From Escherichia coli (GTDB lineage: Bacteria; Pseudomonadota; Gammaproteobacteria; Enterobacterales; Enterobacteriaceae), in assembly GCF_016026235.1 (NCBI RefSeq), contig NZ_CP065613.1: DNA of 64,000 bases. One strand, 5' to 3'. The notes under the pieces are model-generated. The model had not been told where the DNA came from. It did no database searches and saw only the letters and a program-made list of their open reading frames with translations. Positions within the stretch are counted from its first letter, which is position 1; each line of letters begins with the position of its first letter. Positions 23,148 through 26,964 of this stretch are shown one piece after another. The position numbers and the translations under genes are program-made.

Positions 23148-24230
23148 TCACTGCCCGCTTTCCAGTCGGGAAACTTGTCGTGCCAGCTGCATTAATGAAT
23201 CGGCCAACGCGCGGGGAGAGGCGGTTTGCGTCTTGGGCGCCAGGGTGGTTTTTCTTTTCACCAGAGAGACGGGCAAAAGCTGATTGCCCTTCACCGCCTG
23301 GCCCTGAGAGAGTTGCAGCAAGCGGTCCACGCTGGTTTGCCCCAGCAGGCGAAAATCCTGTTTGATGGTGGTTAACGGCGGGATATAACACGAGCTGTCT
23401 TCGGTATCGTCGTATCCCACTATCGAGATATCCGCACCAACGCGCAACCCGGACTCGGTAATGGCGCGCATTGCGCCCAGCGCCATCTGATCGTTGGCAA
23501 CCAGCATCGCAGTGGGAACGATGCCCTCATTTAGCATTTGCATGGTTTGTTGAAAACCGGACATGGCACTCCAGTCGCCCTCCCGTTCCGCTATCGGCTG
23601 AATTTGATTGCGAGTGAGATATTTATGCCAGCCCGCCAGACGCAGACGCGCCGAGACAGAACTTAATGGGCCCGCTAACAGCGCGATTTGCTGGTGACCC
23701 AATGCGACCAGATGCTCCACGCCCAGTCGCGTACCGTCTTCATGGGAGAAAATAATACTGTTGATGGGAGTCTGGTCAGAGACATCAAGAAATAACGCCG
23801 GAACATTAGCGCAGGCTGCTTCCACAGCAATGGCATCCTGGTCATCCAGCGGATAGTTAATGATCAGTCCACTGACGCGTTGCGCGAGAAGATTGTGCAC
23901 CGCCGCTTTACAGGCTTCGACGCCGCTTCGTTCTACCATCGACACCACCACGCTGGCACCCAGTTGATCGGCGCGAGATTTAATCGCCGCGACAATTTGC
24001 GACGGCGCGTGCAGGGCCAGACTGGAGGTGGCAACGCCAATCAGCAACGACTGTTTGCCCGCCAGTTGTTGTGCCACGCGGTTGGGAATGTAATTCAGCT
24101 CCGCCATTGCCGCTTCCACTTTTTCCCGCGTTTTCGCAGAAACGTGGCTGGCCTGGTTCACCACGCGGGAAACGGTCTGATAAGAGACACCGGCATACTC
24201 TGCGACATCGTATAGCGTTACTGGTTTCAC
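23148..24230 (-). CDS. lacI: Lactose repressor (LacI/GalR family), 360 aa, GTG start
   Basis: VKPVTLYDVAEYAGVSYQTVSRVVNQ HTH; ends ...RLESGQ immediately before the CAP site. Confidence 0.96.
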   Translation of the reverse strand: MKPVTLYDVAEYAGVSYQTVSRVVNQASHVSAKTREKVEAAMAELNYIPNRVAQQLAGKQSLLIGVATSSLALHAPSQIVAAIKSRADQLGASVVVSMVERSGVEACKAAVHNLLAQRVSGLIINYPLDDQDAIAVEAACANVPALFLDVSDQTPINSIIFSHEDGTRLGVEHLVALGHQQIALLAGPLSSVSARLRLAGWHKYLTRNQIQPIAEREGDWSAMSGFQQTMQMLNEGIVPTAMLVANDQMALGAMRAITESGLRVGADISIVGYDDTEDSSCYIPPLTTIKQDFRLLGQTSVDRLLQLSQGQAVKGNQLLPVSLVKRKTTLAPKTQTASPRALADSLMQLARQVSRLESGQ

Positions 24231-24265
24231 ATTCACCACCCTGAATTGACTCTCTTCCGAGCGCT

Positions 24266-24294
24266 ATCATGCCATACCGCGAAAGGTTTTGCGC
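24266..24294 (-). promoter_or_regulatory. lacI promoter (-35 GCGCAA, 17-bp spacer, -10 CATGAT), wild-type, not the Iq allele
   Basis: Reverse complement reads gcgcaaaacctttcgcggtatggcatgat; overlaps the stop codon of the upstream AraC-type gene. Confidence 0.8.
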
Positions 24295-25220
24295 CATTCG
24301 GCGGGGCTGACGCCGAAGTGAGATTTAAAATGCTGACGCCAGGTCACAGGTGAGAGAAAACCCACCTCAGCCGCTATCCGCTCAACGGGCAACTGACTGG
24401 ATCCCAACAGTTCCTGGCTACGGCGTAAGCGTTCAGTAATGAGCCATTCGGCGATACTCGAACCGGTCGCTTTCATAAAATGGCGAGTTAATGTGCGGCG
24501 ACTCATCATTACTCGCTGCGCCAGCGAGTCGAGATCATGCTGTTGCGCAATGTTTTGCCGCAGGTAATCCAGCAGGAGGTTTATGCGTTCATCATGGGTA
24601 TTTTTCGGCACCGGTTGCTCAATAAACTGCGCCTGACCGCCAGTGCGATATGGCGGTACGACCATCCGTCGGGCAATATGGTTAGCATAGTCGCTGCCAA
24701 AATGTTGCCGAACAATATACAAACAGCAATCCAGCGCCGCGGCAGTACCGGCAGAGGTAATAATGCCGTCATCGTCTACGTACAACGCGTTAATATCCAG
24801 ATGTGTTTGTGGAAAACGTGCCTGAAATTCACGCTCGAACTCCCAGTGTGTGGCGGCACGCTTATTTTTCAGTAAACCTGCATAGCCGAGCACAAACGTG
24901 CCCAGGCAAAGCCCGACAATCTGTGCGCCGTTATCCCGTGCGGTCGTTAAGGCTTCCAGCAGTTTTTGTGGCGGTTTTTGTGTAATGGTTCCCCAGTAAG
25001 GAATTATCACAATATCTGCCTGGATGACTGCGGTATAGTCATGGGGGGCGGTTACGGAAAACCCATCGGCAGAGTCCACGTTTCCCGGCTTTTCAGCGCA
25101 GATAATTACGTGAAAGTGTTTTTTCTCCGCCATTTTTTCGCTAAATACGATAAACGGTACGGAAAGGTGAAAAGGACTAAAACCGGCAACGGCGATAATG
25201 GCAACAGTTAGCGGGCGCAT
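24267..25220 (-). CDS. AraC-family transcriptional regulator with N-terminal DJ-1/PfpI (GlxA-like) domain, 317 aa
   Basis: C-terminal AraC HTH (RRTLTRHFMKATGSSIAEWLITERLRRSQELL ... WRQHFKSHFGVSPAEWRK); N-terminal class-I glutamine-amidotransferase-like fold. Confidence 0.75.
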   Translation of the reverse strand: MRPLTVAIIAVAGFSPFHLSVPFIVFSEKMAEKKHFHVIICAEKPGNVDSADGFSVTAPHDYTAVIQADIVIIPYWGTITQKPPQKLLEALTTARDNGAQIVGLCLGTFVLGYAGLLKNKRAATHWEFEREFQARFPQTHLDINALYVDDDGIITSAGTAAALDCCLYIVRQHFGSDYANHIARRMVVPPYRTGGQAQFIEQPVPKNTHDERINLLLDYLRQNIAQQHDLDSLAQRVMMSRRTLTRHFMKATGSSIAEWLITERLRRSQELLGSSQLPVERIAAEVGFLSPVTWRQHFKSHFGVSPAEWRKTFRGMA

Positions 25221-25239
25221 AACACTCTTTATCTCCGAA

Positions 25240-26028
25240 TTAGAATGTCAACGTTTCACCATCTTCTGGTACGTTCACAAATTCGATAATTTGATTATCT
25301 CTGGCGTATTCCTTGAGCGCATCACGCGTCAGCAAACAGTGGTTTACGGCCTCCATATGTGTCGCGACAATTTGCGCTTCTGGCAGGGTAAAATGTGTTT
25401 TGAGAATATCTTCTGCTCCCATAATTATCGCGCCATGCCCCAGAACATGCGCAAATCCGGCATTCAACACAACCACTTCTGGTTGGAAAGTTAGCATTGT
25501 AACCTCGACGTCGTCACGCCAGAGGGTATCGCCAGCCAGATAGAGCGTTTTCTCTGTCGGGTGCTGGAAAACAACGCCGCAGGCTGCGCCTAAACGCTTC
25601 GCCATAGCCGGGTCGGCATAGGTGCGATCGGAGCCGTGCTGCCCTGTCGTTTTATGCAGAGTAATATCGCCAAATTTAGTCTCGTCGGTAAGTACGGTAA
25701 GATGCGTAAATCCTTGTTTATTCAGTGATTCAGCATCTTGCTCATTTTGCACATAAATCAGTTTATCTTTAGGGACGACGCGGGAGGCTGTTTCGTCCCA
25801 GTGATCTTCATGCAAATGGGTCACGATTAGGGCGTCAACGTTGAGTAACGTTGTTAAATCGCACGGTAATTCTACCGTTGGATTGCGGATTTCTGCGCGT
25901 GCCGTTCCGGCAAAACCCGGATAACTTCCTTTAGGCGCGAGTAACGGGTCGATAAGAAATGTTTTGCCAGCGTATTGGATAATTTGGGTGGCATTACGAA
26001 TTTGCGTAATTTTCATGATTTGCTCCAC
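25240..26028 (-). CDS. MBL-fold (metallo-beta-lactamase superfamily) Zn-dependent hydrolase, 262 aa, substrate unknown
   Basis: HxHxDH motif (VTHLHEDHWDE) plus downstream His/Asp ligands; lies 19 bp upstream of the AraC-type gene on the same strand. Confidence 0.75.
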   Translation of the reverse strand: MEQIMKITQIRNATQIIQYAGKTFLIDPLLAPKGSYPGFAGTARAEIRNPTVELPCDLTTLLNVDALIVTHLHEDHWDETASRVVPKDKLIYVQNEQDAESLNKQGFTHLTVLTDETKFGDITLHKTTGQHGSDRTYADPAMAKRLGAACGVVFQHPTEKTLYLAGDTLWRDDVEVTMLTFQPEVVVLNAGFAHVLGHGAIIMGAEDILKTHFTLPEAQIVATHMEAVNHCLLTRDALKEYARDNQIIEFVNVPEDGETLTF

Positions 26029-26130
26029 ATCACAGTATTGATGTCATTAGCGTAGCGTGCAGCCCGTGCTGTGCATGTGGGCAAATGGGCGAATAACGAT
26101 GAGAATGGGCCAAATTACACATTGGCGTAA

Positions 26131-26964
26131 CTAGCGTAAATGCACGCCGCTTCGCCGTCCGGCCACCAGAATAGCCTGCGATTCAACCCCTTCTTCGATC
26201 TGTTTTGCTACCCGTTGTAGTGCCGGAAGATGCTTTTCCGCTGCCTGTTCGATGGTCATTGCGCTCGCCATATACACCAGATTCAGACAGCCAATCACCC
26301 GTTGTTCACTGCGCAGCGGTACGGCGATAGAGGTGATCTTCTCCTCCTGATCCCAGCCGCGGTAGTTCTGTCCGTAACCCTCTTTGCGCGCGCGCGCCAG
26401 AATGGCTTCCAGCTTTAACGGTTCTCGTGCCAGTTGATAGTCATCACCGGGGCGGGAGGCTAACATCTCGATTAATTCCTTGCGTTCTTGTTCCGGGCAA
26501 AAGGCCAGCCAGGTCAGGCCCGAGGCGGTTTTCAGAAGCGGTAAACGTCGCCCGACCATTGCCCAGTGAAAGGATAAGCGGCTGAAACGGTGAGTGGTTT
26601 CGCGTACCACCATTGCATCAACATCCAGCGTGGACACATCTGTCGGCCATACTACTTCGCGCAACAGATCGCCCAGCAGTGGGGCCGCCAGTGCAGAAAT
26701 CCACTGTTCGTCACGAAATCCTTCGCTTAATTGCCGCACTTTGATGGTCAGACGAAAACTATCATCGGAGGGACTACGCCGGACATATCCCTCTTCCTGC
26801 AGCGTCTCCAGCAGTCGCCGCACAGTGGTGCGATGCAGGCCGCTGAGTTCCGCCAGCAGCCCGACGCTGGCACCGCCGTCAAGTTTATTTAACATATTTA
26901 ATAACATTAGACCGCGGGTTAAGCCGCGCACGGTTTTGTATTCCGTCTGCTCATTGTTCTGCAT
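26131..26964 (-). CDS. mhpR: IclR-family activator of the mhp operon (277 aa)
   Basis: IclR HTH and effector domain; start at MQNNEQTEYK; divergent from mhpA. Confidence 0.9.
   Translation of the reverse strand: MQNNEQTEYKTVRGLTRGLMLLNMLNKLDGGASVGLLAELSGLHRTTVRRLLETLQEEGYVRRSPSDDSFRLTIKVRQLSEGFRDEQWISALAAPLLGDLLREVVWPTDVSTLDVDAMVVRETTHRFSRLSFHWAMVGRRLPLLKTASGLTWLAFCPEQERKELIEMLASRPGDDYQLAREPLKLEAILARARKEGYGQNYRGWDQEEKITSIAVPLRSEQRVIGCLNLVYMASAMTIEQAAEKHLPALQRVAKQIEEGVESQAILVAGRRSGVHLR

Follow-up and report, generated by a model that had tools for sequence, protein, structure and literature searches.

The 64,000-nucleotide (nt) stretch of Escherichia coli contig NZ_CP065613.1 (assembly GCF_016026235.1) analysed here, hereafter the window, carries lacI directly downstream of an intact ovrA, a gene for an AraC-type regulator, and the lacI promoter lies within the 3' end of that gene. 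We consider it very probable that the window preserves an ancestral order, mhpR-z0443-ovrA-lacI-lacZYA on one strand with the lacI promoter in the ovrA tail, and that the corresponding promoter of E. coli K-12 is a stump left by a deletion. According to the proposed mechanism, a weak sigma-70 promoter would sit within the last ten ovrA codons, its -35 made by the invariant Trp-Arg-Lys codons and its -10, after a TG, by the last codon and the TGA stop. A deletion of ~1.82 kb by illegitimate recombination would then have removed z0443 and nearly all of ovrA from most E. coli, K-12 included, joining mhpR to the terminal ~44 nt of ovrA, and the remaining stump would be the textbook lacI promoter. 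Other lineages would have truncated ovrA independently, leaving 99 nt in B2 strains, ~86 nt on Klebsiella lac plasmids and ~40 nt in Citrobacter koseri, with at least the -10 retained in each case.

The ovrA gene occupies positions 24267-25220 of the minus strand and encodes 317 residues ending in ...SPAEWRKTFRGMA (S-P-A-E-W-R-K-T-F-R-G-M-A, followed by TGA). As proposed in the initial annotation, the lacI promoter hexamers (24294-24266) fall in the tail of this AraC-type open reading frame (ORF), and its stop codon (24269-24267) lies inside the -10 hexamer CATGAT (24271-24266, minus strand), of which it forms bases 3-5. Read on the minus strand, positions 24294-24266 are gcgcaaaacctttcgcggtatggcatgat (also given as GCGCAAaacctttcgcggtatggCATGAT) and encode W309 to A317 plus the stop. 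The -35 hexamer GCGCAA (24289-24294, minus strand) spans the third base of W309, the whole codon of R310 and bases 1-2 of K311, and is separated from the -10 by a 17-nt spacer (24272-24288, minus strand), at the end of which a TGg (24274-24272) precedes the -10 and resembles an extended -10 element. All 29 promoter bases are identical to those of K-12, and the distance from the -10 to the lacI GTG codon, 35 nt, is that found in the K-12 record NC_000913.3.

A chance resemblance to the lacI promoter was rejected, the 29-mer occurring once in the window with 0 occurrences expected, and even the bare hexamer pair being expected only 0.03 times in 64 kb. A generic sigma-70 scan misses the site because only 6 of 12 consensus positions match, which is consistent with its description as a low-level promoter. 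Transcription of lacI should start at G 24258 (minus strand), 8 nt past the -10, and would yield a 28-nt 5' untranslated region (24258-24231); this is the first G of GGAAGAGAG, which we take to be the K-12 start site on the strength of Steege 1977 and Calos 1978 as cited in PMC7049694. The K-12 promoter is drawn from the experiments of Calos 1978, Steege 1977 and Farabaugh 1978, as cited in PMC7049694, and the A-to-C change in the -10 that makes an NheI site in that paper fits CATGAT followed by AGC. From the identity with K-12 we infer that the embedded promoter is active in the present strain.

The sequence upstream of lacI in NC_000913.3 reads gacaccatcgaatggcgcaaaacctttcgcggtatggcatgatagcgcc, exactly as given in the initial annotation, and an alignment with the window bears out the accompanying claim that K-12 keeps precisely the ovrA tail, all 34 bases between the start of cgaatgg and the end of the stop codon being identical. 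Over the stretch that begins with cgaatggcgc and reaches the lacI start codon, the two sequences are distinguished by one single-nucleotide polymorphism (SNP) at 24260 (position -2), gcgcTcgg in the window and gcgcCcgg in K-12. The K-12 promoter is thereby homologous at the nucleotide level to the 3' end of a gene that is intact at the same locus in relatives. In the alignment the segment missing from K-12 is 24301-26134 (minus strand), 1834 nt, which is the length reported for O-island 19 (OI-19; PMC8565820). The simplest reading of the junction is that 1824 nt (24311-26134) were actually deleted at a microhomology of 2 nt, 'cg', and ~44 nt of ovrA (24267-24310, minus strand) would then be left in K-12-type genomes.

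The extra 10 nt are assigned to ovrA on the basis of junction alleles that have identical spacing and form a graded series from the intact gene to K-12. At the position equivalent to the K-12 junction intact ovrA reads ggcgtcagccccgccgaatgg, E. coli O121:H19 and the cryptic Escherichia clades read ...cgtTAA(t/c)gccgccgaatgg, and K-12 reads catttacgtTGAcaccatcgaatgg. The cryptic-clade allele (ttaacgccgc) matches the ovrA patch tcagccccgc at 7 of 10 positions and the K-12 allele (ttgacaccat) at 4 of 10; the K-12 fossil is probably ~44 nt long, extending 10 nt further upstream than first proposed, with ttgacaccat a diverged form of tcagccccgc. The deletion would have set the ovrA sequence tcag... 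behind the last Arg codon of mhpR, where the mhpR stop codon would then have arisen. A deletion model with CGCC(G)AATG as microhomology was discarded, since it fits the cryptic-clade allele worse than the 'cg' junction (5 versus 3 mismatches). Within the 10-nt patch (24301-24310, ~-37 to -46), K-12 and the cryptic clade show four differences, all of them transitions, and by inspection the flanking sequence differs far less in the same alignment (L001, L064-L067, L007, L010 and L012).

The relation of the promoter to the protein encoded by ovrA is seen most directly in its orthologues. Thirteen OvrA sequences from Citrobacter, Leclercia, Enterobacter and Huaxiibacter (316-328 residues) have an invariant FGVSPAEWRKTF, followed by Arg in 12 of the 13; W309, R310 and K311 do not vary in any of the 13, unlike the residues after TFR. 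The tail FGVSPAEWRKTFR is kept in orthologues that include those of Leclercia, where lacI does not follow: at locus L006 a metallo-β-lactamase (MBL) gene-ovrA pair without lacI downstream still encodes it, and in Leclercia adecarboxylata, where a convergent ATPase gene comes after the pair, the tail reads ...gagtggcgcaaaacgttccgt.... Because this tail is invariant even where no lacI lies downstream, the bases of the -35 and the spacer are assigned to the native coding sequence of the ovrA family, and they read unambiguously as ovrA codons.

Gene order outside E. coli was examined with a LacI query against one genome per species, followed by tblastn of the flanks. Citrobacter sedlakii (L018) has the order mhpR-MBL gene-ovrA-lacI, and its ovrA ends ...cgcggtatggcatga 39 nt before lacI. 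The same abutment of ovrA and lacI is found in C. amalonaticus (L016 and L022) and in a Citrobacter metagenome-assembled genome (L027), where the -10 is CATCAT and a TAG stop follows immediately after it. In a rough neighbour-joining tree of LacI, the Escherichia clade and the Citrobacter clade each include the intact, abutting state; together with the C. sedlakii and C. amalonaticus loci and the Leclercia tail without lacI, this outgroup evidence supports the intact state as ancestral. The Citrobacter freundii complex has two ovrA tails, of which one is intact and lacks a -10, and the other (e.g., aaatgacgaaaaacctttcatggtgtggcatgat) is decayed and carries a -10 beside lacI. A clean duplication was considered for these tails and set aside, as local scores reach only 8-11 and the sequences are too decayed to be reconstructed. 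In this complex ovrA and lacI are separated by a convergent methyltransferase gene (L003, 5954-6744; equivalent in L013-L015, L017, L019-L021, L023, L025, L033, L041 and L042).

Three arrangements of the locus account for 5384 of the 5387 complete E. coli genomes that carry lacI. The K-12-type junction is present in 4462 of 5426 complete genomes, a B2-type stump in 487, and intact OI-19, always chromosomal and in single copy, in 435 (O157:H7, O145 and others); these are counts in a collection biased to clinical strains, not population frequencies. In the B2 strains Nissle, UM146 and NC101, 99 nt of ovrA (corresponding to 24267-24365, minus strand) are joined to the yaiL side and the mhp cluster is lost; the NCBI Prokaryotic Genome Annotation Pipeline (PGAP) annotates this stump as a partial GlxA-family pseudogene, 'missing N-terminus'. 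On 1320 plasmid records, 1156 of them from Klebsiella, lacI is preceded by ~86 nt of the ovrA tail (24267-24352, minus strand) with a frame-breaking deletion of 1 nt, and a lac module with the same stump adjoins TraG-like genes in Leclercia NCTC13032. Shorter remnants are found in C. koseri (~40 nt), in Budvicia (~36 nt) and, at 19-25 nt, in Serratia, Salmonella arizonae and diarizonae, Pseudocitrobacter and Pseudenterobacter, all with p ≤ 0.006 in a shuffle test of the 40 nt upstream of the -10, the -10 itself excluded. In Escherichia sp. MOD1-EC7003 (L011, 818-1136) ovrA is present upstream of lacI as broken pieces (tblastn identity 43-95%), which looks like a route of pseudogenisation unlike the clean deletions.

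The gene in the window is orthologous to z0442 of E. coli O157:H7 (99.1-99.2% nucleotide identity, same neighbours). According to the relevant passages of two reviews (PMC8565820 and PMC10877973), OI-19 of strain EDL933 measures 1834 bp and comprises two ORFs: z0442 (ovrA) codes for an AraC-type activator of ler, which binds to the LEE1 promoter, and z0443 is of no known function. The segment is counted there among the islands 'unique' to O157:H7 relative to K-12. OvrA has the architecture of the GlxA family, an N-terminal DJ-1/PfpI-like domain (PF01965, 1.2e-11) followed by a C-terminal AraC-type double helix-turn-helix (HTH_18, PF12833, 1.5e-19; HTH_AraC, PF00165, 6e-12), and is labelled 'GlxA family transcriptional regulator' by PGAP, or, in newer records, 'ovrA: OI-19-encoded virulence regulator OvrA'. 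The ratio of nonsynonymous to synonymous substitution rates (dN/dS) is 0.04-0.09 for ovrA and 0.09-0.2 for the z0443-like gene; ovrA is under purifying selection and is a live gene. Its synonymous divergence (dS) is 0.03-0.11 between alleles within E. coli and is saturated, at ~2, against Citrobacter. The G+C content of the OI-19 segment, 0.48-0.52 (0.54-0.58 in the flanks), lies near the E. coli genome average, and base composition is not diagnostic as a test of its origin. The segment holds only two ordinary ORFs, with no mobility genes, integrase, insertion sequence (IS) element or tRNA, and no direct repeats are present at its edges beyond short matches at chance level; it thus lacks the mobility genes and repeats of a horizontally acquired island and has the same gene order in Citrobacter. 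Because of the tail that is invariant without lacI, the gene order in Citrobacter, the nested stumps and the purifying selection, OI-19 is read as ancestral and K-12 as the deleted state.

Several observations weigh against this reading, besides the clinical bias of the genome collection. The overlap, the homology with K-12, the distribution of the arrangements and the polarity of the event follow directly from the sequences compared; promoter activity and the start site in a strain that bears ovrA rest on identity with K-12. The 10-nt patch of K-12 matches ovrA at 4 of 10 positions only, and its homology depends on the intermediate alleles. The two tails of the C. freundii complex, one intact and one decayed, are not explained by a simple insertion. 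Finally, an intact ovrA that stands apart from lacI (C. freundii complex and Leclercia) ends in GAA, GV, GD or MRS before the stop and lacks the -10, and every one of the 39 lacI loci scanned has a -10-like hexamer, including that of Tatumella, which has no trace of ovrA.

These last two points concern the origin of the -10. The hexamer is preceded by TG upstream of lacI at 39 of 39 orthologue loci, and TGnCAT(G/C)AT is found at 38 of them, the exception being a Leclercia locus (L046) with CGTGAT. It is also present in Kluyvera, Klebsiella spallanzanii and Tatumella, in which nothing upstream of lacI can be traced to ovrA. It may be that the -10 belongs to lacI and that the reading frame of ovrA extends into it. 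In such a composite origin, lacI would have had an extended -10, TGnCAT[G/C]AT, before ovrA came to lie next to it, the ovrA frame would have run into this element and created the lineage-specific ending G-M-A-stop, and only the -35 and the spacer would be an ovrA fossil. The presence of TG and the -10 at 38 of 39 loci, including the basal Tatumella and Kluyvera, favours this possibility, as do the variable residues after TFR and the missing -10 in ovrA genes apart from lacI. However, the bases in question are read as ovrA codons in every strain in which ovrA abuts lacI, and Kluyvera and K. spallanzanii are nested in the rough LacI tree beside C. koseri and C. amalonaticus, so that their fossil-less state looks like a secondary loss because they stand among fossil-bearing lineages; Tatumella, which is basal, could equally have lost the fossil. 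A comparison of synonymous sites in the ovrA tail, limited to 11 codons, gives no separation between genes that abut lacI and genes that do not (0.70-0.78 versus 0.45-1.00). The -35 varies widely among genera (GCGCAA, GCGAAA, AGGAAA, ACCCCA and others), which would fit reliance of the promoter on an extended -10. We regard the composite origin as a substantial possibility that still falls short of even chances, and it refines the main explanation rather than competing with it. The proposal made at first annotation, which derives the K-12 promoter from the 3' end of a gene otherwise deleted, thus stands in its main part, carried by the tail that is invariant without lacI, the Citrobacter gene order and the nested stumps, with the qualification that the -10 may have belonged to lacI.

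A second alternative assigns the embedded hexamers little function as long as ovrA is intact: they would be largely silent, lacI would be expressed mainly as the distal gene of read-through from mhpR, z0443 and ovrA, and only the deletion would have made the promoter important on its own. A scan for terminators found none on the minus strand in the gaps between mhpR, z0443, ovrA and lacI, Rho-dependent termination lying outside its scope, and the folding z-scores of the gaps are -0.12 and +0.31. Read-through from z0443 and ovrA into lacI thus meets no structural obstacle in the form of a terminator and is plausible, also in view of the K-12 operon label 'mhpR-lacI' (PMC8674286). This absence of terminators favours the silent state, as does the match at only 6 of 12 consensus positions, and the 10-nt patch upstream of the -35, which evolved unusually fast after the deletion, could reflect a retuning. 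On the other hand, both contexts present the same promoter sequence, which RNA polymerase should recognise equally, and the TG and -10 are conserved across genera in every arrangement, which implies use. We hold a silent promoter to be improbable. A site for CRP at -6 to +22 of the lacI promoter, reported in a preprint, would lie downstream of the ovrA stop codon. Rather doubtful is a broader suggestion made from the gene layout, namely that the dosage of LacI in natural E. coli may be more than simply 'constitutive' and could be coupled to the activity of mhpR, z0443 and ovrA through read-through and through occlusion of the promoter by terminating ribosomes and elongating polymerases. The deletion would then have rewired this coupling, the 10-nt patch would record compensatory retuning, and the whole-ORF knock-outs of ovrA made in virulence studies of enterohaemorrhagic E. 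coli would alter lacI expression.

A horizontal acquisition of OI-19 between mhpR and lacI in O157-like lineages, with K-12 ancestral and an ORF that chanced to end in the resident promoter, would agree with the listing of OI-19 as 'unique' to O157:H7 relative to K-12 in the literature on enterohaemorrhagic E. coli and with the K-12 state being the majority state and occurring also in cryptic Escherichia clades, but it is highly improbable, as the bases in common encode the family-invariant AEWRKTFR tail that is present without lacI in Leclercia, C. sedlakii has the identical four-gene order, remnants of 99 and ~86 nt are independent, the segment has no integrase, IS element, tRNA or flanking repeat and a G+C content near the genome average, the dS of 0.03-0.11 within E. 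coli is that expected for a long-resident, core-like gene, and the saturated dS of ~2 disfavours a recent import from E. coli into C. sedlakii or C. amalonaticus.

The deletion reading is set in the lac-mhp neighbourhood of E. coli, where mhpR, the MBL hydrolase gene, ovrA, lacI, lacZ, lacY and lacA follow one another in this order on the minus strand of the window. The mhpR gene (26131-26964, minus strand) has the same direction as the z0443-like gene and lies 114 nt upstream of it. The latter (25240-26016, minus strand, PGAP coordinates) encodes an MBL-fold metallo-hydrolase with a Lactamase_B_2 domain and ends 19 nt upstream of ovrA, with which it probably forms an operon. A gap of 36 nt separates ovrA from lacI; in K-12 MG1655, lacI follows directly after mhpR at a distance of 76 nt. 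The lacI coding sequence (23148-24230, minus strand) encodes LacI and Peripla_BP_3 domains, and the protein has the length of K-12 b0345. An in-frame GTG at 24239-24237, 9 nt before the canonical GTG at 24230, gives rise to a LacI of 363 residues in the mechanical ORF list; the start used by the annotation and in K-12 is 24230.

Some of the lac loci that were collected have peculiarities of their own. C. freundii CP056644.1 carries a natural in-frame lacI-lacZ fusion ORF of 1362 residues (L005, 6744-10832); compared with L003 (7787-8000), 214 nt are deleted between two TGGCACGTC repeats, which takes out the 3' end of lacI, the lac promoter and operator, and the 5' end of lacZ. A record of strain Nissle 1917, CP171242, has in place of lacZ one pseudogene fragment each of a nucleotidyltransferase and of a hypothetical protein (L002, 8331-8864) and appears to be an engineered derivative. 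E. coli lacI with 92-99% identity is found in assemblies of unrelated taxa, Lamprocystis purpurea DSM 4197 (L008), SAR11 PRT-SC02 (L053) and Mangrovicoccus ximenensis (L060); the L008 junction is vector-style (...cccggacaccatcgaatggcgc), and contamination of these assemblies by a cloning vector or E. coli is most likely.

The findings assign an origin to a widely used DNA part, as the lacI promoter fragment of vectors (gacaccatcgaatggcgcaaaacc...) corresponds to the C-terminal stump of a regulator gene, and this origin may explain the poor consensus match of the lacI promoter. They would turn OI-19 from an 'island' of O157:H7 into an ancestral segment lost by K-12. The overlap also bears on genetic constructs in strains that carry the intact segment: a whole-ORF deletion of ovrA takes away the -35 and the -10 of lacI, and -35 up-mutations would here be missense changes in OvrA. 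The lacIq mutation changes GCGCAA to GTGCAA, and in the present context it would also be the substitution R310C at an invariant residue of OvrA. The lac module has spread among genera and plasmids with the ovrA stump attached, and the stump is a useful marker of its history. It was already known what OvrA does and that K-12 lacks OI-19; the B2 stump is annotated by PGAP, and promoters in upstream ORFs and gene stumps are familiar in general. Within the full-text literature, to which older subscription literature does not belong, no paper was found that links ovrA/z0442 to the lacI promoter or calls the K-12 promoter a gene remnant.

Compared with known systems, the window agrees with the classical lacI promoter of K-12 in all 29 nt, in the spacing to the GTG and in the leader, with one SNP at -2, but the promoter is translated as the C-terminus of OvrA in the window and is intergenic in K-12. 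OI-19 of O157:H7 has the same two genes and comprises the same 1834 bp that are missing from K-12; it is treated as an 'island' of O157 in the passages of PMC8565820 and PMC10877973 on 'OvrA' and 'OI-19', which do not mention lacI, whereas the present comparison makes it an ancestral segment common to Citrobacter whose last codons coincide with the lacI promoter. The figure legend of PMC8674286 that reproduces the EcoCyc visualisation labels a K-12 operon 'mhpR-lacI', and there too a co-directional regulator gene stands next to lacI without a terminator, as ovrA does here; the window differs in the two extra genes between mhpR and lacI and in the absence of the mhpR-lacI junction. Promoters that overlap the 3' coding end of the preceding gene on the same strand have the layout found in the window, which likewise has no terminator between the genes. 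Retained gene stumps are a general phenomenon; what sets this one apart is its role as the textbook promoter for the most thoroughly studied repressor of bacteria and its presence, along with the lac module, on 1320 plasmid records.

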